From a virus (Duplodnaviria; Heunggongvirae; Uroviricota; Caudoviricetes), in IMG/VR virus record IMGVR_UViG_3300032257_000005, positions 64,001 through 86,291 of that record: a stretch of DNA of 22,291 bases; one strand, written 5' to 3'. The notes under the pieces are model-generated. The model made no database searches. It saw only the letters and a program-made list of their open reading frames with translations, and was not told where the DNA came from. Made by a program: the position numbers and the translations under genes. How positions within the stretch are numbered: position 1 is the stretch's first letter; each line of letters begins with the position of its first letter. Positions 2,400 to 20,734 of the stretch are shown one piece after another.

Positions 2400-2440
2400 G
2401 CCTCCTTGCTGTAATTGAATTCTAATTACACTTTGGAGGC
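2400..2440 (+). promoter_or_regulatory. SD-sequestering hairpin upstream of the tail tube gene
   Basis: GCCTCC (2400-2405) pairs with GGAGGC (2435-2440); inner stem TGTAATT/AATTACA. Confidence 0.65.
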
Positions 2441-2447
2441 TTTTCTA

Positions 2448-3647
2448 ATGGGACAACAATTTTCAGATTCAAACCGAGTAGGTGTACGTTATATAGCAGA
2501 GGCTTCATTTGCTGTTCAACCTACTGGCCCTAATATGCAGGAGTTAAATTTTACTTCTGAATCCTTTAAATCAAATGTAAATACCGTTACATCAGATACT
2601 ATCCGTTCAGACCGAAACGTATCAGACATTACACAAGTTGGTGGTGGTGCTGGTGGTGATGTTGGTTTTGAATTACGTTATGGTGATATAGATACTTTGC
2701 TTGCTGGCGCATTACAAGGTGCATGGGCAACGACTACTGTATCCGCAACAGTTGCATCATCTTACTTTTCCGGTGCTGATATCCATGTTAACGATGCTTT
2801 AACGGCTGCTGATAATATATTAGTGGGTCAATTACTACGTGTAGCAAATGCTTCTGCAATAGCTAACGATGGTGACTATCGAGTAACCGGCGTTTCTGCC
2901 GTAGGTGCATCAACAACAATCGTAACACTTGCTAATGCAAGTTCTGGTGTTGCTGCTGCTTTTACTTCAGATGTATTTGCTGCCACGACTACATTACGCG
3001 GTAAGAATTTACGTAACGGTGTACTTGCACAAAGCTATACGATTGAAAAACAATTCGCCGATGTATCAGCTACAGCCGTTTATACTGGTATGAGAGCAAC
3101 CACACTTAGCCTTGCGTTTGATTCACAGGCTATCATGACTGGTACTATCGGTTTTGCCGGTGTTGGTCAAACAGCCGCTTCAGCAACAATAGCTTCAGCT
3201 ACAACAGCCGCTTCAACTAATCTTGTTATGAACGCATCTAATAATGTTGCGCGTATATGGGAAGGTGGACAGGCTATCACAGGCATTGCATTTCAAAGCG
3301 TTTCAATTGATTTAAACAATAACCCGCGTGATCAACCTGTAGTCGGTTCTGCAAACCTTGCCGGTATCGGTACAGGTCGTTGTGAAGTAACTGGATCTAT
3401 GACCGCTTATTTTGAAAATAATACTTTGATTAATAAGTTTACGGCAGGTACTAAATCAAATTTCCGTTTTCAAATTACCGATGCAAGTGGAAATAGTTAT
3501 GTTGTCGATATTCCAAATACTACCTATACAGATATGACTATTGTAGCGGGTGGCCCTAATCAGGATATCGTACAAGAAGGATCATGGGGTGCTGCTGTAG
3601 ATACTACAGGTACTTATGCAATCCAAATAGATGCACTTGATGCATAA
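2448..3647 (+). CDS. Major tail tube protein (Phage_tube_2-like)
   Basis: GGAGG SD before ATG 2448 (track start 2415 is a TTG extension); SDTIRSDRNV motif; position before chaperones and tape measure. Confidence 0.85.
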   Translation: MGQQFSDSNRVGVRYIAEASFAVQPTGPNMQELNFTSESFKSNVNTVTSDTIRSDRNVSDITQVGGGAGGDVGFELRYGDIDTLLAGALQGAWATTTVSATVASSYFSGADIHVNDALTAADNILVGQLLRVANASAIANDGDYRVTGVSAVGASTTIVTLANASSGVAAAFTSDVFAATTTLRGKNLRNGVLAQSYTIEKQFADVSATAVYTGMRATTLSLAFDSQAIMTGTIGFAGVGQTAASATIASATTAASTNLVMNASNNVARIWEGGQAITGIAFQSVSIDLNNNPRDQPVVGSANLAGIGTGRCEVTGSMTAYFENNTLINKFTAGTKSNFRFQITDASGNSYVVDIPNTTYTDMTIVAGGPNQDIVQEGSWGAAVDTTGTYAIQIDALDA

Positions 3648-3675
3648 AATTCACCAATAGAAAGAGGAATAAATT

Positions 3676-4086
3676 ATGGATTTATCTAGTTTTGAAAGTA
3701 ATGTTGAAGCATCAGAAGATGGTGTATGGAATGATCTTAGCGAAGATTCACGAATTAAAGTTGCACGTTACGGTAACAAGAAATTTAATAAATTACTGCA
3801 AGCTAAAATGTCACCTTATAAGCGATTGATAGATCAAAATCGTTTAGATGATGATATTTCTGAAAAGATTTTAAATGAAGCTATTGTAGGTGGTATTTTA
3901 TTGGATTGGGAAGGTCTTACTTATCAAGGTGAGCCACTTAGTTATAGCCGTGAAAATGCAATGATGGTTTTAAGTGATAAACGCTTAAAAGATTTTCGTG
4001 ATTATATTGTAACGATTGCACAAGATGCTGAATTATTCAGAGCTGAACAAATAGATGAAACCGTGGAAAAGTCGTTAACTGTTTAA
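3676..4086 (+). CDS. Tail assembly chaperone (gpG-like)
   Basis: GAGGA SD; RIKVARYGN...LLDWEGL motifs; lies between tube and tape measure. Confidence 0.85.
   Translation: MDLSSFESNVEASEDGVWNDLSEDSRIKVARYGNKKFNKLLQAKMSPYKRLIDQNRLDDDISEKILNEAIVGGILLDWEGLTYQGEPLSYSRENAMMVLSDKRLKDFRDYIVTIAQDAELFRAEQIDETVEKSLTV
4065..4071 (+). other. Predicted -1 frameshift site G GAA AAG giving a 240-aa gpGT-like fusion (3676..4397)
   Basis: The -1 frame is open from 4059 (TGA at 4056) and reads ...EKVVNCLKWNLEWGKQ..., running into track ORF 4146..4397. Confidence 0.75.
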
Positions 4087-4397
4087 AATGGAACTTAGAA
4101 TGGGGCAAACAAGAAACGTTTTTAGAGGGGCTTGTACAGCAAGGAATGAATGTACAAGCGTTAAGGAATAAGCCAATACTTGAATCAAAGTATGAAAATA
4201 TTTATAACGCTTATTCATTAATGCATAGAAGTAGAAGGGCGGAAATGTCTGGTGCATTACCAATACCTTTAACTGAAATAGAATGTTATTGCAGATTATT
4301 TGATGTTATTGATAGGGAATTATTAATAACAGTTGTTATAGCAATGGATAATGCTTACTTGGATTGGGTTGAAGAACATGCCAACAGAAATACTTGA
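4071..4397 (+). CDS. gpT-like C-terminal part of the frameshifted tail chaperone
   Basis: Track ORF 4146..4397 extends upstream to the slippery site; RSR...PIPLTEI...AMDNAYLDW resembles gpT-type sequences. Confidence 0.75.
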   Translation, partial: VVNCLKWNLEWGKQETFLEGLVQQGMNVQALRNKPILESKYENIYNAYSLMHRSRRAEMSGALPIPLTEIECYCRLFDVIDRELLITVVIAMDNAYLDWVEEHANRNT

Positions 4398-7300
4398 ATT
4401 AAAAGTTGATTCCAAAGGTGTTGTAACAGGTCTGAAACGAGCTGAACAAGCTAATGACAAGTTTTCAAGAAATGTACAATCAACATCTAAAAAAACTGGT
4501 GGCGCATTTTCAAAACTTCAAGGTTCTATTTTTAGTTTAAAAGCTGCATTTGTAGGTTTAGGTGTAGGATTTTTATTTGTTAATGCAATTAAATCATCAA
4601 TAGAATTTAATGCAACTATATCTAATCTATCTGCTATTACTGGTGCTACTGGTAAAGATTTAGATTTCTTAAAAGATAAAGCAAAAGAATTTGGTGAAAC
4701 AACTACTTTATCTGCATCTGGTGTTGCTGAAGCATTTAAATTAATTGCATCTGCTAAACCTGATCTTTTGGAAAGTGGTGCGGCATTAGCGTTTGTAACT
4801 AAAGAAGCTATTACCCTTGCTGAAGCTGCAAACATATCTATTCAGCAATCTGCAATATCATTAGGTAGCGCATTAAACCAATATGGTAAGGGTGCTGAAT
4901 CTGCAACTAAATTTATTGATGTTCTTGCGGCTGGTGCAAAATTTGGTGCATCTGAAATAGCTGATACAAGCCAAGCATTAAAACAAGCGGGTACGGTTGC
5001 GGCATCTGCTGGAATTTCATTTCAACAATTAAATGCAAGTATTCAAATATTAGCGGGTGTTGGTCTTAAAGGTGCTAGAGCTGGTGTTGGCTTAAGAAAT
5101 GCATTTTTACTATTACAAAAAAATGGCATCGGTGTAACTAATGGGATATTCAATTTAAATAATGCATTAGAAGAATTAGCACCTGATGTTGATAATACAA
5201 CTAAATTAATGGAAATATTTGGTACTGAAAATGTTGTTGCAGGTCAAAGATTAATTTCAGCAAGAAAAGAATTAATAGCAATGACAAGTAAGGTTAATGA
5301 AAATGGTGTTGCATTAAAACAAGCTAGAACTAATGTAGATAATTTACAAGGTGATTTAAAAAATCTTGGAAGTGCGTTTGAAGGTTTGCAATTAGCTATA
5401 ACTGAAGGTGCTGATTCTCCATTAAGAGGATTAGTACAATCATTAGCAGATCTTTTGAGATTTATGTCAGATAATATTGATGTAATTATTTCATTTACTA
5501 AAGCATTAGGTACATTTTTTATTCTGACAAAGATAGTCAATTTATTCACTAAATTAAAAGCTGGTGTTACAGCAATGATAGCTGCAAATAATTTAGCGGC
5601 TGCGGCAACGGCTGTAACAACTGAAACAATGGTTGCATCGGCTGCGGCAACAACGGCTGCAAGTACATCAATGGCTGTACTTGGTACTACTGCATTAACA
5701 ACATCAAAACAATTAGCTCTAGCGAATAAAACAGTTAAATTAAGTAGTGCAACTACAGCCGGTCTTGGTACTGTAATGAAAAAGACAACTGTAGGCATGG
5801 GTTTAATGGGTGCTGCTGGTGCTGGATTACGCGGCATTATGACTTTACTAGGTGGCCCTGTTGGGTTATTTATTACAGCCGCTAGTGCTTTAGTGTTTTT
5901 TACTAGCAACATGAAATCTGCTGAAGAAAGAATGGGTGAATTAAATGGTGAAGTTGATAAATTAAATGCTTCATTAGGTAAACTATCAAGATTAGAAGTT
6001 GCTGCTGCTTTTGATACTGCAAAAGATAAGGCATCTGATTTTCAGAAAGAAATAGCAAACGCTCAAACTGAAATAAAAGGTATTCGACAGCAACAATTAA
6101 GATTTGGTCTAAGCACTTCTATTTATAAAGGCATGGAAAAGCAAATTAGAAATATAAAAATACAGGTAGAACAATGGAATGAAGGATTGATTAGAGTTCA
6201 AGCTACTGCTGAAAAATTAAGACAGCAAAAAGACTTTTTAGTACCTGCTTTAGCAGATACACCAGATCGAGCTGCATTAGCTAAATCAATTAATGATGCT
6301 AATATAAAAAGAAAAGAAGATGCAAAGCCTGAAAATATTGCAAAAGGTCTTGAATCTAAAATAGCTTTTGCTACAGCACCATTTTTAGGTGGTCAAACTG
6401 AATTAAGAAAAGCACAACAAAAATTAGAGGAATTACAAAAGCTGAAACAAGAATTATCTAATCCTGTTATATTAAAAGCTGTTTTAAAAATTGGTGGAAA
6501 AAAAGCAATAGATAATCTTAATTTTGCATTAGATGCGGCAAAGAAAAATGTTGATGATATAAATGTAAAATTAAGTAAGCCTGTTAAAACAGTTGGGCAA
6601 AAATTTGCTGATGATCTTAAGACGCAAATTAATTTATATGGAAAAACAGAACGTGAAATAAAAATCGCGCAAGTTGCACAAGAAGCATATAACGCTGGCA
6701 TAACAAAACAAATAGGTTTAATTAAAATGCTGGCAGGTGAGTTATTTGATCTAAATAAAGCACGTCAAATAAGAGAAGGTGTTGATCCTACTATTGCAAT
6801 ACAACGTGAGATTGATCAGGTAAACAGATTGCGCGGCCAATCTGGTGCGGCTGGTATTACTGATGATCAAGCAAGACAAGCTATTAGGAATTTAACAGGT
6901 GTTGCTACTGCTACTGATAAACTAAAAGTACAGGAAGATATTTTAAATCTTGCTATTCGTGAAGGTGTATTAACAATACCTGAACAAACTAGGGCGTTAT
7001 CTGAATTAGCGTTTGCTAAGGAAAAGGTACGTCAAGCCTCAATGGATCTAACTTCTGCCGAACGTGAAGCAATAGTAATACAGCGTTCAGAAATTTCTTT
7101 ACAGCAAGCACGAGATCAAGCTGATTTTACAAAAGGTAGAATAACCACTATTGATTTAATTAAGCGACAAAATAAAACAACAAAAGCAAGTATTGAATTA
7201 TTGAAAAAAGAAGCGGCTGCTGCTAAAGCTGCTGGAATGGAATTAAAAGAAGCTAGAATAAATGAACAAATTATCTCATTAGAAGCGTCATTAACAAGTG

Positions 7301-7836
7301 CATCTGATTTAGTACGTGGTGATTTTCAAGATGCATTTACCGATACGTTTGATAGTTTGATTATGGGAACTAAATCAACAAGTGATGCATTTAAAGATTT
7401 AGCAAAAAGTATATTAGCTTCATTTAGTAGAGTGATTTCACAAAACTTAGGTGAAAGTTTAGCTAATTCATTATTCAGTTCAAGCACATCAAGCGGCGGT
7501 GGAGGCGGTAGTAGTGGCTTTGGTGGAATAATTGAAAGTGCTTTAGGTGCTGTATTTGGTGGTGGTAGTGAAAGTGGTGGCGGCTTTGCTGGTGGTGGTT
7601 CGTTTCGTGTAGGTGGTTCAGGTGGTGTTGATTCTCAATTAGTACAATTTAAAGCATCACCTAACGAAACAGTAACGGTTACTAAGCCTGATCAAAAAGG
7701 TGGCAACGGCGGAATGACGGTCAATAATTATTTCACGATATCTGCACCTAACGGAAACGTTAGCGCACAATCAGAACAGCAAGTAGCAACGGCTGCTGGT
7801 CGTGGTATACAGAACGCAATGCGAAGGAATACATAA
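4378..7836 (+). CDS. Tape measure protein (TP901-family core)
   Basis: About 1150 aa, Ala/Gly-rich; LSAITGATGKDL...AKEFGETT core; C-terminal FAGGGSFRVGGSGGVDSQLVQFKASPNE. Start MPTEIL at 4378 preferred over 4351. Confidence 0.93.
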   Translation: MPTEILELKVDSKGVVTGLKRAEQANDKFSRNVQSTSKKTGGAFSKLQGSIFSLKAAFVGLGVGFLFVNAIKSSIEFNATISNLSAITGATGKDLDFLKDKAKEFGETTTLSASGVAEAFKLIASAKPDLLESGAALAFVTKEAITLAEAANISIQQSAISLGSALNQYGKGAESATKFIDVLAAGAKFGASEIADTSQALKQAGTVAASAGISFQQLNASIQILAGVGLKGARAGVGLRNAFLLLQKNGIGVTNGIFNLNNALEELAPDVDNTTKLMEIFGTENVVAGQRLISARKELIAMTSKVNENGVALKQARTNVDNLQGDLKNLGSAFEGLQLAITEGADSPLRGLVQSLADLLRFMSDNIDVIISFTKALGTFFILTKIVNLFTKLKAGVTAMIAANNLAAAATAVTTETMVASAAATTAASTSMAVLGTTALTTSKQLALANKTVKLSSATTAGLGTVMKKTTVGMGLMGAAGAGLRGIMTLLGGPVGLFITAASALVFFTSNMKSAEERMGELNGEVDKLNASLGKLSRLEVAAAFDTAKDKASDFQKEIANAQTEIKGIRQQQLRFGLSTSIYKGMEKQIRNIKIQVEQWNEGLIRVQATAEKLRQQKDFLVPALADTPDRAALAKSINDANIKRKEDAKPENIAKGLESKIAFATAPFLGGQTELRKAQQKLEELQKLKQELSNPVILKAVLKIGGKKAIDNLNFALDAAKKNVDDINVKLSKPVKTVGQKFADDLKTQINLYGKTEREIKIAQVAQEAYNAGITKQIGLIKMLAGELFDLNKARQIREGVDPTIAIQREIDQVNRLRGQSGAAGITDDQARQAIRNLTGVATATDKLKVQEDILNLAIREGVLTIPEQTRALSELAFAKEKVRQASMDLTSAEREAIVIQRSEISLQQARDQADFTKGRITTIDLIKRQNKTTKASIELLKKEAAAAKAAGMELKEARINEQIISLEASLTSASDLVRGDFQDAFTDTFDSLIMGTKSTSDAFKDLAKSILASFSRVISQNLGESLANSLFSSSTSSGGGGGSSGFGGIIESALGAVFGGGSESGGGFAGGGSFRVGGSGGVDSQLVQFKASPNETVTVTKPDQKGGNGGMTVNNYFTISAPNGNVSAQSEQQVATAAGRGIQNAMRRNT

Positions 7837-8696: not shown

Positions 8697-9730
8697 GTAA
8701 AGTTATAACGGCTGAAATGTCAGCACATTTAGAAAGTGGAAACACAACTTTATCTACATGCTGGAGAATGATACGTGAAGATGGTGTTGTACTTGGTTTT
8801 ACTGATAGCGTTGTTGATTTAGAAGTATCCAGTGTTGTATATGAAGCTGCTACCGGATATACACCTTCTGCATTAACTAAGAATGATAATATGGCCGTGG
8901 ATAATATGGATATTCTTGGTTTACTTAATTCCGATGGTATTACTGATGCGGATATTGAAGCTAAGAAATACGACAATGCAGAAGTATTTACATTCATGGT
9001 TAATTATAACGATTTAACGATGGGTCAAATAAAAATGGGTCGTGGTCGTATCGGTAATATAACAACACAAGATGAACAATATGTTGCTGAATACAGATCA
9101 TTAGCGCAATTACTTCAACAACCAGTAGGTGAACGTTATTCGTTACGATGTCGAGCTGAATTAGGTGATACAAGATGTGGTGTAAATTTATTGCCTGATG
9201 TATGGGCTTCATCTACTGCATATGACATTGATGATATTGTTAGAGCATCTAGTTATGATGCTAGAAGATATGTTTGTACGGCATCTGGTACAAGTTCTGG
9301 AAGTGAACCAATTTGGAATACAACAATAGGAAGTACAACTACTGACAATACAATAACATGGACTGCATTTGATGCATATACACATCAAGGTACAGTTTCA
9401 TCAGCACCAAGTAGACGACATTTTATAGATACAACATTAGGAAAAGATACTGGTTTTTTTGATTATGGCGTTTTGACTTGGACAAGTGGGAATAATTCTG
9501 GATATACAATGGAAATAAAGTCATATGTAAAAAGCATGGCTTTCTATAATTTTTATCTTTACGAAAATATGCCTTATAGTATTGAGGTTGGAGATACATT
9601 TACAGTAACAATAGGTTGTGATAAAGACTTGGCTACATGTAGAGATACGTTTGATAATATTGTTAATATGAGAGCGGAACCGTTTATCCCCGGTATTGAT
9701 AAAGTCACACAATTTGGTGGTCAAACATGA
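8693..9730 (+). CDS. DUF2163 / BR0599-family baseplate hub (GTA g13-like) with four conserved Cys
   Basis: TCWRMIREDGVVLGFTD; CRAELGDTRC; GCDKDLATCRDTFDNIVNMRAEPFIPG. Confidence 0.9.
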   Translation: MSKVITAEMSAHLESGNTTLSTCWRMIREDGVVLGFTDSVVDLEVSSVVYEAATGYTPSALTKNDNMAVDNMDILGLLNSDGITDADIEAKKYDNAEVFTFMVNYNDLTMGQIKMGRGRIGNITTQDEQYVAEYRSLAQLLQQPVGERYSLRCRAELGDTRCGVNLLPDVWASSTAYDIDDIVRASSYDARRYVCTASGTSSGSEPIWNTTIGSTTTDNTITWTAFDAYTHQGTVSSAPSRRHFIDTTLGKDTGFFDYGVLTWTSGNNSGYTMEIKSYVKSMAFYNFYLYENMPYSIEVGDTFTVTIGCDKDLATCRDTFDNIVNMRAEPFIPGIDKVTQFGGQT

Positions 9731-10134
9731 TTACCAGAAAACAAATAGTGGATGAAGCGCGTACATGGATTGGAACACCTTTTCAGCATCAAGCGCGTGT
9801 TAAAGGTCGTGGTGTTGATTGTATTGGTGTCGTTCAACAAGTAGCGCAAGCATTAAGCATAACTAAATATGATCGTAGTGATTACGGTCGTGAACCTGCT
9901 AACGGTGAATTACAAAAAGCATTGAATGAACATTTAATAAAAATAGATACGTTGGAAAACGGTTGTATCTTATTAATGAAATTTATCAATGAACCACAAC
10001 ATGTTGCTATCTATACAGATAAAAATACGATTATTCATGCATATGCCAATGTAGGTAAATGTGTTGAACATCGGTTAGATCCAAAATGGGAAAGACGAAT
10101 TTATTCAATGTATAAATACATAGGTGTTGAATAG
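9727..10134 (+). CDS. NlpC/P60 tail-associated peptidase (GTA g14-like)
   Basis: ARTWIGTPFQHQ, GVDCIG (Cys), PQHVAI (His), IIHA. Confidence 0.92.
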   Translation: MITRKQIVDEARTWIGTPFQHQARVKGRGVDCIGVVQQVAQALSITKYDRSDYGREPANGELQKALNEHLIKIDTLENGCILLMKFINEPQHVAIYTDKNTIIHAYANVGKCVEHRLDPKWERRIYSMYKYIGVE

Positions 10135-15983: not shown

Positions 15984-17458
15984 ATAAATTCAGATCACTT
16001 ATTTTTGATTTTATTAAACCAAAATACTTTATTGCCAACAGTGCAAGAATGGGTGCGGCAGGTTCTGGTGGTTCTGGCATACCTTTTTATGGCTATACTT
16101 CGGCGGTAATAGCAGATGGTGCGGCTGCTTACTGGAAACTGGACGAAGCAACGGGATCGACTGCCGTTGATTATGCTAGTAGTTTAGATGGAACCTATAC
16201 TAATGGTGTTACAAAAGGTGTTGCTAAGTTAATAAGTGATTCTGGTGGTACTGCTGTTTCTTTTGATGGAACAAATGATTTTATTACGATGGGTGATGTT
16301 CTTGATTTTGATCAAGGTGATCGTTTTTCTATTGAGTTTTTAATTAACACAACAGATGATGGTGGTGGTAGTGGTGCTTCTATAATATCAAAACAATCTA
16401 ATACTGCACCTTATAGTGGTTATTCTCTGTATGTTTATATAAACTATATTTATATATCACTTATAGGTACAACTTATGCTAATAGATTAGAGAGTCATTA
16501 TGCAGTAGCGATAAATGATGGTGAAGATCATCATGTTGTGTGGACATATAACGGAAGTTCTAATATATCAGGAATGAAATTATCGGTAGATGGTGTTTTT
16601 CAAACTATGACAACCGATGTTAATAATTTAAGTACATCTACTGTTTGTGCTGAACCTTTTAATATAGGCGCAAGAAATAGTGTAGATATATTTGTATCTG
16701 CTGTTATCGACGAAGTTGCAGTTTATGCTACGGCCTTACCTGAAATCACTGTAAGAAAACATAAAGCGTTAAGTTTAGGTTATGCCTCGGCAACTTATCC
16801 TTTTGCGGTTATAACAGATGGAGCGATTGGTTATTGGCGTTTAGGTGAAACAACGGCATCAACGGCATATTCAGATGTTAATCATGTAATGGATGGAACC
16901 TATACAAACGGTGTTACGAAAGGTGTGACCAGTTTAGTTTCAACTGAAACCGATACGGCTGCTTCTTTTGATGGTACGAACGACTATGTATCTGTTACAG
17001 ATACGACAGATTTAAAAATAACGGGTAATATTACGGTTGAAACTATTGTTGCATTCAGTTCAACACAAACAGGTAAATACATAGTTTCAAAATGGGATAA
17101 TGCGGCACAACTTTCTTACATATTAAACATACCGGCAACCAATAATGTTTTCCAATTTGCTATTCGTACTGGCGGGGCAACTAAAAAAGCCAGATCGACA
17201 CCAACTTATAATGACGGTAATTCTCATCATGTTATGGGTACATATGATGGATCTAATATTAAATTATATGTAGATAAAGTTTTGGTCGATTCATCGGCTG
17301 TCACTGGGTCGATAACTGATTCCACTGCTGATTTTGTTATTGGTGCGGGTGATGGAAATATAAGTAACTTTGACGGTACGATTGATGATACGGCAATTTA
17401 TGCAACTGCACTAACATCAGCGCAAGTTTCATCACATTTTGCCGCTACTGGATTATAA
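15980..17458 (+). CDS. Receptor-binding protein with two tandem LamG/ConA-like domains
   Basis: Two copies of AYWKLDE/GYWRLGE...DGTYTNGVTKGV...SFDGTNDF/Y...HV..TY.GS...IDE/D.A.Y.TAL. Confidence 0.85.
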   Translation: MNKFRSLIFDFIKPKYFIANSARMGAAGSGGSGIPFYGYTSAVIADGAAAYWKLDEATGSTAVDYASSLDGTYTNGVTKGVAKLISDSGGTAVSFDGTNDFITMGDVLDFDQGDRFSIEFLINTTDDGGGSGASIISKQSNTAPYSGYSLYVYINYIYISLIGTTYANRLESHYAVAINDGEDHHVVWTYNGSSNISGMKLSVDGVFQTMTTDVNNLSTSTVCAEPFNIGARNSVDIFVSAVIDEVAVYATALPEITVRKHKALSLGYASATYPFAVITDGAIGYWRLGETTASTAYSDVNHVMDGTYTNGVTKGVTSLVSTETDTAASFDGTNDYVSVTDTTDLKITGNITVETIVAFSSTQTGKYIVSKWDNAAQLSYILNIPATNNVFQFAIRTGGATKKARSTPTYNDGNSHHVMGTYDGSNIKLYVDKVLVDSSAVTGSITDSTADFVIGAGDGNISNFDGTIDDTAIYATALTSAQVSSHFAATGL

Positions 17459-17469
17459 AGGAAAGTAAT

Positions 17470-17775
17470 ATGCCTGATTTTACAGAAAGTGATAGTAGAG
17501 CATTATATAAAGCTCATGAACGACTTGATACAATGTCTGAGATTGTTGTCGAACTTCGTACACAAAATAAATATCAAGAACAAAGAATAAAACAAAATGA
17601 AGATATAATGACTAAACATATGACTGATGAAGAAAAAATGTGGGATAAAATGCAACGTAATTTTGATTCACTTGTACGATTCAAATGGATTGCATTAGGT
17701 GTTATTGGTACGTTGTTAGTGGCTACTTCCGATAATCCGGTAGTTTCAAAAATAGTTGAGTCGGTGTTGAAATAA
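17470..17775 (+). CDS. Coiled-coil protein with a C-terminal TM (XhlA/holin-like)
   Basis: AAGGA SD; hydrophobic WIALGVIGTLLVA; first gene of the lysis region. Confidence 0.6.
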   Translation: MPDFTESDSRALYKAHERLDTMSEIVVELRTQNKYQEQRIKQNEDIMTKHMTDEEKMWDKMQRNFDSLVRFKWIALGVIGTLLVATSDNPVVSKIVESVLK

Positions 17776-17776
17776 T

Positions 17777-18013
17777 ATGTTAGCTAAAGACAAAAGAGAT
17801 CATATATTATTTGGTTTATTAGGCTTCGGGCTTGTTTGGGCTATATCAAAAAATATAGATTTTGCATTAGCCGTAACCGCGTTGTTCTGGGGTAGTAAAG
17901 AATTAATATGGGATGGTTTGCTTAAAAAAGGTACACCAGAATGGTTAGATTTTTTTGCTTCTGTTGTTCCATCGTCTATAATCTATTTAATAGTGAGGTT
18001 TTGTTATGCCTAG
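17777..18013 (+). CDS. Small multi-TM membrane protein (DKRDH...KELIWD...DFFAS)
   Basis: Two to three hydrophobic segments; directly before the endolysin. Confidence 0.65.
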   Translation: MLAKDKRDHILFGLLGFGLVWAISKNIDFALAVTALFWGSKELIWDGLLKKGTPEWLDFFASVVPSSIIYLIVRFCYA

Positions 18014-18437
18014 TTTCGGTACATCATCAAAAGGTAAGCTTGATACATGTGATAAAAGATTAATTGATATTATGGAAGTTGTAGTCAGGCATATCGACTG
18101 TACTATTATTTGCGGTCATAGATCTGAACTTGCACAAACTGAAGCATTTGAAGCCGGAAATTCTAAAGTTGAATGGCCTCATAGTAAGCATAATAGCTAT
18201 CCGTCAAAGGCTGTTGATGTTGCACCGTACATTTTAGGTCGCGGTATACCTTGGCCTCAAGAGGATAAGTACAAAACAAAAGACACGGCGCAATTTTATT
18301 ATTTACAAGGTTTCATTCGCGGTATCGCTGAATCAATGGGCCATAAAGTTCGGTTTGGCGGTAACTGGAATGGCAGTAATGATTTCAGACAAAACAGTTT
18401 TGATGATACCCCTCACGTAGAAATAGTTGGAGAATAA
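18006..18437 (+). CDS. Endolysin, peptidase M15 family (L-Ala-D-Glu type)
   Basis: ICGHRS...Q, SKHN...AVD, RFGGNW, DTPHVE Zn-peptidase motifs. Confidence 0.9.
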   Translation: MPSFGTSSKGKLDTCDKRLIDIMEVVVRHIDCTIICGHRSELAQTEAFEAGNSKVEWPHSKHNSYPSKAVDVAPYILGRGIPWPQEDKYKTKDTAQFYYLQGFIRGIAESMGHKVRFGGNWNGSNDFRQNSFDDTPHVEIVGE

Positions 18438-18438
18438 T

Positions 18439-18636
18439 ATGACAAGCTTTTTAAACAAGTGCCGTAAATCATGGACACTAAACGGAAATATGATTGCTGC
18501 TATACTCATTGGTATGCAAGATAATCTAGGCTTATTGCAATTACCACAAGATTATCATAAATGGGCTTTGTTTATTATCATAATAATGAACATCGTTTTA
18601 CGATTCAAAACCAGTACCGCTATTGGAGATAAATAA
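18439..18636 (+). CDS. Putative holin (2 TM)
   Basis: GGAG SD supports ATG 18439; KSWT...LRFKT pattern with two hydrophobic segments. Confidence 0.65.
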   Translation: MTSFLNKCRKSWTLNGNMIAAILIGMQDNLGLLQLPQDYHKWALFIIIIMNIVLRFKTSTAIGDK

Positions 18637-19073
18637 TGTTTAAAAATTTAATGATTGTAATGTGTGTTTTATTTGGTATGTCAGTTTCTTGGGTTAAAGC
18701 AGATCCAGCCGATCCTTCACTTAAAACTTTTACATGGTCAAACCCAGTTGATTTTGAAGATGGTACGACTGTACAGGTAGATGGTACGCCTTATGTTTTT
18801 GGTGGCAGTAAATTCTATTGGAAATTAAATAACGGAACTGATAAATATGGCGATCCTAATTCTTTTACTATTTCAGATCCAAACGCTACAAGCTTAAATG
18901 CTGATACACTTCCTGTTTTACCTGATGGTTCTTATTTAGGTGCAATGACTGGTTTTGATATAAATGGAATCGAATCAAAATATTCAGAGGACGTTGTTTC
19001 GTTTACGGTGGTTGGGGGAAAGTTAGTAGCGTTCAAGAGATCAAACCCACCAACGAACCTCAAGAAGCAATAA
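18636..19073 (+). CDS. Secreted protein with signal peptide and an Fn3-like beta-sandwich (145 aa)
   Basis: MFKNLMIVMCVLFGMSVSWVKA signal; FTWSNP...EDGT...Y...TGFD.NGIESKYSE pattern. The fold call is tentative. Confidence 0.7.
   Translation: MFKNLMIVMCVLFGMSVSWVKADPADPSLKTFTWSNPVDFEDGTTVQVDGTPYVFGGSKFYWKLNNGTDKYGDPNSFTISDPNATSLNADTLPVLPDGSYLGAMTGFDINGIESKYSEDVVSFTVVGGKLVAFKRSNPPTNLKKQ
19016..19022 (+). other. In-frame slippery heptamer G GGA AAG
   Basis: Codons GGG GGA AAG at 19014-19022; identical to the lambda G-T site. Confidence 0.75.
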
Positions 19074-19204
19074 AATATATTATTGGGATTGGTCTGGCTT
19101 TAGTCGCTTTTTTAATTGCGACAGGCCACTGGAAAATAGCACTTTTGATATTAATATTATGTCTGATAATAATATGGTATCTAAAAAAGAAAAGTGCCCC
19201 TTAG
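19022..19204 (+). CDS. -1-frame extension of 18636 (VSSVQEIKPTNEPQEAIKYIIGIGLALVAFLIATGHWKIALLILILCLIIIWYLKKKSAP)
   Basis: Frame open 18959-19204, with no ATG/GTG/TTG before the hydrophobic segments; fills an otherwise empty gap. Confidence 0.65.
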   Translation, partial: VSSVQEIKPTNEPQEAIKYIIGIGLALVAFLIATGHWKIALLILILCLIIIWYLKKKSAP

Positions 19205-19240
19205 CAGTTTTTGCTAGTACAAAATGTAGGAGTTATAAAC

Positions 19241-19387
19241 GTGAAAGAAAAGATAAGAAATGTCGGAAAGAAGGCAAAGCAGTTTGTAATAGAGTATTGG
19301 AAAAGGGTACAACTAAGTTGGAAAAGTAACGCGGTCAGTTTTGGGATAGGTGTTGTTTTAGGTTACGTTATACATGCTTTACGCTAA
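19241..19387 (+). CDS. 48-aa basic protein with a C-terminal TM (MKEKIRNVGKKAKQFVIEYWKRVQLSWKSNAVSFGIGVVLGYVIHALR)
   Basis: Hand-translated; AGGAG SD at 19228-19232 and GTG start; overlaps the i-spanin start. Confidence 0.7.
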   Translation: MKEKIRNVGKKAKQFVIEYWKRVQLSWKSNAVSFGIGVVLGYVIHALR

Positions 19388-19748
19388 GTTAATTGGTGCG
19401 GCTGTTGTAGCTGGTATTGTTTATCTCGGTTACTCCTATGTTACGGGAGTAATCGAGGATAACAAAACTCAAGCTATTAATATTAAAACGTTAGAAACAG
19501 CTATTAAATTAAAAGATGCTGAAATTGCTGGTAATAAATTAGCGATAGTATCACTCGTAAAACAAAACAGTGACTATTTGAAAACGTTAAATGATGCAAA
19601 ACTTGTTGAAGCCAGTAAAAACAAAGTGATTGATGATCATGACTTGAAAAAACTATTTAACGCAAGACCTAAAACAATGAAGCGATTGATTAACAAAGGT
19701 ACAGCAACAGTATTAACTGATATAGAAAGGTTATTCAATGAAGATTAG
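19374..19748 (+). CDS. Inner-membrane spanin (Rz-like)
   Basis: N-terminal TM followed by coiled coil; overlaps a lipoprotein gene. Confidence 0.75.
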   Translation: MLYAKLIGAAVVAGIVYLGYSYVTGVIEDNKTQAINIKTLETAIKLKDAEIAGNKLAIVSLVKQNSDYLKTLNDAKLVEASKNKVIDDHDLKKLFNARPKTMKRLINKGTATVLTDIERLFNED

Positions 19749-20046
19749 CTTATTTGTAATATCAATATGTCTTTTGTATGGTTGTAGTTCTATTCAGGAA
19801 AAATCAATTAACGTATCTAGCAAACAGAAAATTAATTGTAGCAGTCTTGAAATACAGAAACTAATTTTACTTAAAGTTAAATTTAATATTGTATTTGATG
19901 AAAGTGGTGAACGCTATGCTGGTTTAGATGGTAAAAATTACGGCAACTTATCTAAAAACATGCAAGCCATTATCAAAGGTATTAAGCAATTAAAAGGCGG
20001 TATACAATTATATAAAACCTGCATAGCTGATTTTAACCAGAATTAG
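19738..20046 (+). CDS. Outer-membrane lipoprotein spanin (Rz1-like)
   Basis: Lipobox LLYG|C at Cys16; ...YGNLSKNMQAII pattern. Confidence 0.78.
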   Translation: MKISLFVISICLLYGCSSIQEKSINVSSKQKINCSSLEIQKLILLKVKFNIVFDESGERYAGLDGKNYGNLSKNMQAIIKGIKQLKGGIQLYKTCIADFNQN

Positions 20047-20734
20047 CAACAAGTAAATCATGTTCTGTATTTATACTGTCACCAGCCTTATCATTAAATT
20101 CATAACAATAAACAATACCATCATTTTCTAGTGTTCGCATTTGCTCAAGCGATTCACTTTTTTCTAATGATTTATTTTTCCATGCCTTATAATAAGTTAA
20201 AAATGAAACATTATACCCATAAATACCACAATGCTTTTTAGCAAATGTTATTGGATAACGTGTAAAAAATAATGCTTTATTATTTCTATTAATTATTACT
20301 TTAATGACGGATTCATCATGCATTTCTTTATCAGTTATATCTTCATACATTGATATCATAGCTCTATGCTTATTATAAACAGGTATATTATCTAATAAGT
20401 AATTTACTTTTTTAATAGCATCAGGGTTAACATTCCAGTTATCACCTTGTACATTAATAATAGAATCGGAATTACTTAATTTTAATTTTGTTGCTATGTA
20501 AGCACAACGTTCAGTACCATTTTCACAAATAATATTTTTTGTATTAACAATCTCAACACGCGAATCAAAATCCATACCAGCAATAATATCACTATCAGTC
20601 GCAACAATAATTCTATCTATTTCTGATTTAAGTGCATTTTCAACTGTATGTTGAATAACAGGCTTGCCTTTTATTTTGCGTAACATTTTATTCTTAACAC
20701 GATGCGAATTAATTCTTGCGGGTATAATTATCAT
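20033..20734 (-). CDS. kdsB: CMP-Kdo synthetase (3-deoxy-manno-octulosonate cytidylyltransferase)-like
   Basis: IPAR.NS.R...K.L..I.GKP.IQH, VATD, GTER, INVQGD, HCGIYGY, LEKSESLEQMRTLE motifs. Confidence 0.9.
   Translation of the reverse strand: MIIIPARINSHRVKNKMLRKIKGKPVIQHTVENALKSEIDRIIVATDSDIIAGMDFDSRVEIVNTKNIICENGTERCAYIATKLKLSNSDSIINVQGDNWNVNPDAIKKVNYLLDNIPVYNKHRAMISMYEDITDKEMHDESVIKVIINRNNKALFFTRYPITFAKKHCGIYGYNVSFLTYYKAWKNKSLEKSESLEQMRTLENDGIVYCYEFNDKAGDSINTEHDLLVANSG

Follow-up and report, generated by a model that had tools for sequence, protein, structure and literature searches.

The final 22.3 kb of the complete 86,291-bp record of an uncultured tailed virus (IMG/VR record IMGVR_UViG_3300032257_000005, positions 64,001 to 86,291; direct terminal repeats, 33% G+C), a stretch of 22,291 nucleotides (nt) hereinafter denoted the window, encodes an exported protein with a single predicted fibronectin type III (FN3)-like domain that is probably produced in two forms by programmed ribosomal frameshifting. 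The gene (window positions 18636-19073, plus strand) is a listed open reading frame (ORF) for 145 amino acids (aa) that belongs to a tightly packed lysis cassette 3' of the tail-fibre genes. We estimate at roughly 70% the probability that a conserved programmed -1 frameshift in this gene yields a soluble and a membrane-tethered form of the FN3-like protein. In such a case, most ribosomes would finish in frame and release a soluble periplasmic protein with the short conserved tail ...NPPTNLKKQ, and a minority would slip back by one base on the heptamer G GGA AAG, so that the P-site tRNA-Gly would pair with GGG instead of GGA and the A-site tRNA-Lys with AAA instead of AAG, at a rate that, as for lambda G/GT, may be a few percent. 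The slipped ribosomes would read 60 more codons, for a polar linker, a hydrophobic hairpin of two helices and a basic tail, and the hairpin would tether the same FN3-like domain to the inner membrane. We infer both the slippage at this particular heptamer and the membrane topology of the fusion from the sequences and their conservation.

The heptamer occupies positions 19016-19022 of the plus strand in the X XXY YYZ phase, i.e., the codons GGG GGA AAG run from 19014 to 19022, with the first G of the heptamer in the third codon position, and are followed by 16 sense codons and a TAA stop. In the structural model described below, the site is located at the end of the fold, just past the last beta-strand (residues 121-126, with VVGGK at 125-129). 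The open stretch of the -1 frame, 18959-19204, contains neither ATG nor GTG; its only canonical start codon is a TTG at 19145, within the second hydrophobic segment, so that no canonical start could yield the hairpin. A slip at the heptamer would replace the 16-residue 0-frame tail by an extension of 60 codons ending at a TAG (19022-19204, plus strand, the stop at 19202-19204) and would produce a protein of 129 + 60 = 189 aa, with the junction ...VVGGK/VSSVQEIK and the predicted junction peptide VVGGKVSSVQEIK. The extension consists, in this order, of an 18-aa polar linker, the helix YIIGIGLALVAFLIAT (19076-19123), the turn GHWK, the helix IALLILILCLIIIWYL (19136-19183) and the basic tail KKKSAP (19184-19201), all on the plus strand; each of the two helices comprises 16 residues with Kyte-Doolittle values above 2. 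The initial annotation of this DNA had described a signal-peptide ORF of 145 aa with an in-frame G GGA AAG near its stop, a -1 frame that lacks a usable start and encodes a linker, two hydrophobic stretches and a KKK tail, and products of 189 and 145 aa, and all these elements are indeed present. The +1 frame is open across the hairpin region as well (19030-19329, 99 codons); over the hairpin, this is because the middle T of the hydrophobic codons becomes a third base and cannot form a stop, and this frame is not to be mistaken for a gene on the grounds of openness alone. The only other plus-strand GGGAAAG in the genome (10088-10094 of the window) lies near the end of the ORF 9727-10134, where it starts at codon position 2 and hence is out of the X XXY YYZ phase.

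By itself, the heptamer says little: the 86-kb genome contains 17 in-frame X XXA AAG sites, and synonymous resampling of the last 25 codons of the window gene generates such a site 19% of the time. Of these 17 sites, only the one at 19016-19022 has a -1 frame that extends beyond the 0-frame stop, which it passes by 44 codons; for the other 16, the -1 frame closes after 1-33 codons, always ahead of the 0-frame stop. A -1 frame as long as 60 codons is found at only 1.35% of the in-frame positions in the long ORFs of the window. Codon-usage scoring of 19073-19201 gives 0.09 bits per codon for the -1 frame and 0.25 for the +1 frame and thus does not separate the two.

Comparison with the relatives of the 145-aa protein carries more weight. 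An exhaustive HMMER search of 1.8 billion representative sequences retrieves 24 relatives, which form a sparse family of proteins from uncultured phages; most of them are 118-165 aa long with signal peptides, and some are large multi-repeat proteins. DNA was obtained for eleven other loci of the family (12 with the window), and the slip-site statistics refer to ten of these others, the locus L027 having been fetched later. The loci L006 (from marine sediment, 39% identical to the window protein) and L009 (33%) contain the same GGG GGA AAG codons, 18 codons before the stop. Five more loci (L011, L019, L020, L021 and L023) contain A AAA AAG 12-13 codons before the stop, a few codons past the position of G GGA AAG; the codons that precede AAA AAG in these loci are TCA, CAA, CTA, GTA and ATA, which specify S, Q, L, V and I and all end in A. 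At the homologous Gly-Gly position, the locus L017 has an in-phase G GTT TTT, a heptamer that cardioviruses and arteriviruses employ. No such slip site is present in L018, L024 or L027, and the -1 frame of L018 and L024 ends at the stop. An X XXA AAG heptamer within the last 25 codons is therefore found in 7 of the 10 other loci, against 0.72 expected when the last codons of each protein are redrawn with the codon usage of its own locus, i.e., under a null model that conditions on the residues; the resulting value of P ~2e-8 is approximate given that the loci are not entirely independent of one another. Where the two proteins of a pair have the same residue, their codons coincide in only 31% of cases in the A AAA AAG group and in 51% among the G GGA AAG loci, and with such a low background (0.31-0.51), shared descent alone does not explain the identity of the heptamers. 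In all eight X XXA AAG loci (the window and the seven relatives), the -1 frame is open from the heptamer to the stop. Together, these comparisons indicate that the slip site is kept at synonymous positions in diverged homologs.

The extension itself recurs as well. Two-helix -1 extensions without a start are found in L006, L017 and L021 and, up to the end of the contig, in L020, although these relatives are only 28-39% identical in the main domain, and no canonical start codon precedes the first helix in the -1 frame of any of the four. The layout is the same throughout: the first helix is rich in Ala and Gly and the second more hydrophobic, with a G-H/N-(P)-W turn between them, and a W and a K/R-rich tail follow the second helix; the extensions are also nearly equal in length. 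The 60-residue extension of L006 aligns with that of the window without gaps (20 of 60 residues identical, with V..VQ, TN, E.IKY, the G.W turn, LIL and W.LKK in common). The conservation of both the heptamer and the putative membrane-spanning frame among homologs, which had been proposed as a check, is thus observed, the heptamer in seven of the ten other loci and the hairpin frame in these four.

These comparisons bear directly on the alternative that no recoding takes place and that the -1 frame arises incidentally from an AT-rich spacer and is not translated, with the heptamers resulting from the conserved Gly-Gly-Lys or Lys-Lys residues and codon bias. Hydrophobic peptides are readily mimicked by T-rich sequence, and the abundance of in-frame X XXA AAG in the genome and the failure of the codon-usage score to part the -1 frame from the +1 frame are both compatible with this possibility. 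However, the very small P value above already takes the residues and the codon usage into account, A precedes AAA AAG after five different residues, and the hairpin frame is also found in L017 and L021, at 40-50% G+C, where chance open frames rich in Ile, Leu and Phe are not expected. An origin without recoding thus appears distinctly improbable.

Several observations weigh against a frameshift that serves to attach an anchor. The sample is small, with 12 loci represented by DNA, and these loci share descent. RNA folding (z-scores from -2.0 to +1.2) reveals no convincing or shared downstream stem-loop in any locus, and an Rfam search yields no match. A point in favour of slipping is that six of nine loci contain, 10-17 nt before the heptamer, a 9-mer that ranks within the top 0.5-1.5% of the whole gene for binding to the anti-Shine-Dalgarno sequence, which is the spacing at which Shine-Dalgarno-like sequences stimulate dnaX slippage; this signal is owed partly to the Gly-Gly codons, and the window has only a weak match, 4 nt from the heptamer. 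Four loci that possess the heptamer (L009, L011, L019 and L023) have -1 extensions of 22-59 residues that are not hydrophobic and do not resemble one another, which implies that the heptamer and the anchor are not strictly linked; three of these four frames are longer than expected by chance (P 0.03-0.09). The initial annotation had envisaged soluble and anchored isoforms produced by the frameshift, and this proposal gains support from the conservation in the hairpin-bearing homologs but does not extend to these four loci, whose extensions lack hydrophobic helices. Slipping may serve different ends in different lineages, or else be regulatory.

In the latter case, the slip would be real, and its purpose would be that the -1 ribosomes cross the gap toward the next gene and modulate its translation, the extension peptide itself having no conserved job. 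The retention of the heptamer in loci with unrelated, non-hydrophobic extensions is consistent with such a role, and so is L009, where the -1 frame overruns the start of the next gene. A further fitting feature is a conserved 22-nt element that includes the TAG of the -1 frame and lies upstream of the ribosome-binding site of the next gene (positions 19197-19218 of the window and 3538-3559 of L006). Purely regulatory read-through, however, would not need a conserved hairpin, and the hairpin is conserved as a protein, in its length, the order of its parts, the W and the basic tail, in five loci whose main domains share 28-39% identity. Accordingly, regulation as the sole purpose of slipping seems quite unlikely. 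The 22-nt element itself can be read in two ways. The window and L006 differ at seven positions of the element, and six of these differences follow a three-base spacing, as would suit a +1-frame peptide, PLAVFAS (rough p ~0.02 for the phase); alternatively, it could form a 6-bp hairpin, TTAGCA-GTTTT-TGCTAG, with one compensatory pair, one change from G-U to G-C and one broken pair. A comparison of two sequences is insufficient to choose between the peptide and the hairpin. Read-through of the TAG at 19202 into the following 48-aa gene, which is in the same frame in the window, was considered and rejected, because L006 has two stops at this place and the intervening peptide is not conserved.

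The topology of the predicted fusion poses a different problem. Two membrane passes after an exported domain would leave the KKK tail outside, contrary to the positive-inside rule, and judging by the charges that flank the hairpin, a free peptide with both ends inside fits better than a fusion to an exported domain. Hence, the membrane may be crossed by the second, more hydrophobic helix alone, with the Ala/Gly-rich first helix at the periplasmic face, or a free peptide with both the N-terminus and the C-terminus inside may be made as well. Taken further, the hairpin could be a separate membrane peptide of 40-odd residues that arises by re-initiation, after termination of the upstream gene, at the non-canonical codon ATA (19070-19072, within A-TAA), the heptamers being irrelevant to its production. 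Each of the five hairpin loci has an ATA that overlaps or adjoins the stop, with the hydrophobic part beginning right after it, and L017 has the hairpin without a canonical X XXY YYZ heptamer. This ATA, however, follows automatically from the C-terminal Gln or Glu codon of the family (CAA or GAA) and a TAA or TAG stop, and it is also present in L009 and L019, which have no hairpin; no Shine-Dalgarno-like sequence precedes it in any locus, and ATA is a very poor start codon in Escherichia coli. Re-initiation further leaves unexplained why 8 of the 11 loci compared retain a heptamer at synonymous sites and why the -1 frame is open from the heptamer to the stop in all eight. A distinct arrangement is seen in L027 (positions 2407-3137, protein P0005), where a lipobox, LISC/GG, replaces the plain signal peptide, the slip site is absent, and the gene is followed, 92 nt later, by a gene with its own ATG for a 67-aa two-helix membrane protein. 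This lipoprotein version suggests that tethering of the FN3-like domain matters; at the same time, it indicates that a separately initiated membrane partner is a viable design, as re-initiation would have it. There is also a precedent in the termination-coupled re-initiation of the MS2 lysis gene, which is among the cases listed in the review PMC5009743. On balance, we regard re-initiation as unlikely.

A technical cause of an apparent shift was also considered, namely, a one-base assembly error in the G5A3 run, in which case the true gene would be a single frame of 189 codons. The shift does sit in a homopolymer-rich stretch, GGGGGAAA. However, the 16 0-frame residues that follow the site (...NPPTNLKKQ) are conserved in the family, including members that lack any -1 frame, and none of the 24 homologs contains a hairpin fused in frame. 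Moreover, the independent assemblies L006, L007 and L008 are identical over 700 nt and have the same arrangement, and the pairs L021/L022 and L009/L010 are likewise identical across the region. The identity of independent assemblies and the conserved 0-frame tail make an assembly indel very unlikely, to the extent that we give it next to no credence. Transcriptional slippage was rejected as the main route because the A and G runs, of only 5-7 bases, are too short and the phase of the heptamer points to the ribosome.

The 0-frame protein starts with the signal-peptide-like sequence MFKNLMIVMCVLFGMSVSWVKA followed by DP. Its composition, with K3, a hydrophobic core and V-K-A/D-P, predicts a Sec signal peptide of 22 aa (18636-18701, plus strand) cleaved after VKA, and the homologs share a pattern of a hydrophobic region followed by A/xP at the N-terminus. 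An AlphaFold (AF2) model built from 14 sequences is a beta-sandwich with a predicted local distance difference test score (pLDDT) of 81, for which all the top PDB matches are FN3 domains (E-values from 2e-3) and which AFDB clusters named FN3 also match (E-values from 2e-5). The Pfam fn3 profile does not match the 145-aa protein at E-values up to 0.1, and the assignment to a fibronectin-III-like, immunoglobulin (Ig)-superfamily-like domain is therefore by predicted fold only. Neither the 145-aa protein nor the -1 extension has a significant match among the PHROG and Pfam families, those of holins, antiholins and spanins included; the extension has only sub-threshold Pfam matches, with E-values of 0.008 or weaker, below the curated cut-offs. 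A megablast search with the region 17400-20100 and a tblastn search with the 145-aa protein against GenBank phages detect no match, and the same holds for such searches with the relatives P0015 and P0025; this FN3-like family is not known from cultured phages. In a word-indexed protein search, the 145-aa protein matches itself only, and the family alignment used as the query matches five proteins; scans of IMG/VR, metagenome and GTDB contigs added only loci of the L009 and L006 types and three shorter relatives without the tail (L014-L016). One match of the contig scans, L026, was rejected as a family member because it is an unrelated cadherin-FN3 protein. The 0-frame tail (19026-19073; ...PPTNLKKQ in the window) conforms to the general form (N/S)PPT(N/Q)L..Q at the C-termini of the family and resembles the opening motif of an FN3 domain. 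Considering the large multi-repeat proteins among the HMMER matches, the family may stem from a multi-repeat FN3 protein that was cut just inside the next repeat. In addition to the counterpart of the window gene, L006 encodes a second, upstream FN3-like paralog with a signal peptide (2553-2990, 145 aa, 27% identical to the window protein), which leaves no room for a -1 extension.

The lysis cassette of the window starts with genes for a 101-aa coiled-coil protein with a C-terminal membrane helix (17470-17775) and a 78-aa multi-helix membrane protein (17777-18013), which occupies the usual position of the holin and is the holin candidate. The next gene (18006-18437, plus strand) encodes an endolysin of the L-Ala-D-Glu peptidase type (phrog_465, 3e-23), for which tblastn identifies annotated endolysins of Vibrio, Stenotrophomonas and Pseudomonas phages. 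The FN3-like gene is preceded by a gene for a 65-aa membrane protein with two helices (18439-18636). Downstream, on the plus strand, are the genes for a 48-aa protein with a C-terminal membrane helix (19241-19387; GTG start after TAGGAG, the L006 counterpart being a conserved 45-aa gene), an i-spanin (19374-19748; phrog_739, 42% identical to the L006 counterpart) and an o-spanin lipoprotein (19738-20046; phrog_812, 40% identical), the two spanins forming a pair of the Rz/Rz1 type. The location between holin and spanins that had been claimed for the FN3-like gene is thus correct with respect to the downstream spanin pair but not in the sense of direct contact with the holin, because the endolysin and the 65-aa protein intervene on the upstream side and the 48-aa protein lies before the spanins. 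If the -1 extension is not counted, the 167 nt at 19074-19240 form the sole coding gap among the overlapping or abutting genes of the cassette, and gene callers left the same gap after the gene in the contigs of L006 and P0019. The L006 cassette is syntenic with that of the window, with 40-60% identity gene by gene. In L009, the FN3-like gene directly follows a gene for a small M15-like enzyme; it is itself followed (3424-3977) by two genes, one for a lipoprotein of 82 aa and one for a protein of 102 aa that has a phospholipase A2-like Pfam match (PF09056), an odd companion for lysis genes. The related endolysin locus L005 has no counterpart of the 18636-19073 gene. A promoter and terminator scan found nothing.

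A lysis role is favoured because of the position of the gene in the cassette in three phages, and our best guess is that the FN3-like protein is a periplasmic partner or regulator of the lysis proteins. The fixed ratio of the two forms and the roles in lysis timing or exclusion that the initial annotation had envisaged are speculative. Lysis isoforms are familiar from the S105/S107 dual start of lambda and from the T4 antiholin RI, whose small periplasmic domain occurs both tethered and released. As in such holin/antiholin pairs, a gene of the lysis cassette would give rise to two isoforms with different, in this case predicted, membrane topologies; the isoforms of those systems, however, including T4 RI, come from alternative starts or release of a signal anchor rather than from frameshifting, and no sequence or profile similarity to them was found. 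A more specific and rather doubtful possibility is a lysis switch common to the entire family, in which the frameshift joins a pinholin-like hairpin to a periplasmic FN3-like sensor, and the anchored minority and the soluble majority antagonise each other in the manner of a holin and an antiholin, so as to time or veto lysis. In this scheme, the hairpin would combine an Ala/Gly-rich first helix able to leave the membrane with a hydrophobic second helix and a basic tail in the cytoplasm. If true, this would give phages a third route, after dual starts and the release of a signal anchor, to forms of one lysis regulator that differ in topology.

For the tail chaperones and some capsid genes of tailed phages, programmed -1 frameshifting is textbook knowledge. 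The closest parallel is lambda gpG/gpGT, with the same heptamer G GGA AAG, a minority slip near the end of a short late gene, a C-terminal extension without a start and a site conserved among distant phages; the gene described here, however, has no sequence relationship to gpG/gpGT and encodes an exported product, to which the slip would add a membrane hairpin instead of a domain that binds the tape measure. The gene was also rejected as a candidate tail assembly chaperone of the G/GT type: the tape-measure-sized ORF of the window is at 4351-7836, and the gene is located 11 kb downstream among lysis genes. With dnaX (tau/gamma) of E. coli, the family shares A AAA AAG, in five members, and perhaps the upstream stimulatory element, given the strong Shine-Dalgarno-like match at 10-17 nt in most loci, but the dnaX shift truncates the product whereas the shift in this family would lengthen it, and no counterpart of the downstream hairpin of dnaX was found. 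Ig-like domains added by frameshifting to capsid and tail proteins (Fraser et al. 2006) and the T3/T7 capsid proteins 10A/10B are reviewed by Atkins et al. 2016 (PMC5009743). These cases also combine a phage late gene, a -1 shift near the stop and an Ig-superfamily-like domain paired with recoding; there, the domain is the extension of a virion protein, whereas here the FN3-like domain would be the body and the membrane anchor the extension of an exported protein that is not part of the virion. Secreted and membrane-anchored forms made from one gene through recoding at a homopolymer run are exemplified by the Ebola virus GP gene, which yields the soluble sGP and the transmembrane GP (PMC5009743); the set ratio is a feature of the Ebola system, which depends on polymerase stuttering in an animal RNA virus, as opposed to the ribosomal slip suggested by the heptamer phase here. 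Neither Atkins et al. 2016 (PMC5009743) nor full-text literature searches yielded a phage case of secreted and anchored forms produced by ribosomal frameshifting, or a frameshift in a lysis cassette, in agreement with the initial annotation, which knew of no described frameshift of this kind.

Thus, the arrangement looks like a real, previously undescribed case of the known -1 frameshift mechanism. If confirmed, it would bring to light a gene family whose members are cut short by current annotation pipelines, with a gap left unexplained behind them, and would provide a natural example of two slip sites, G GGA AAG and A AAA AAG, that can stand in for each other at almost the same position within a family, as well as a new, testable component of the lysis cassette.

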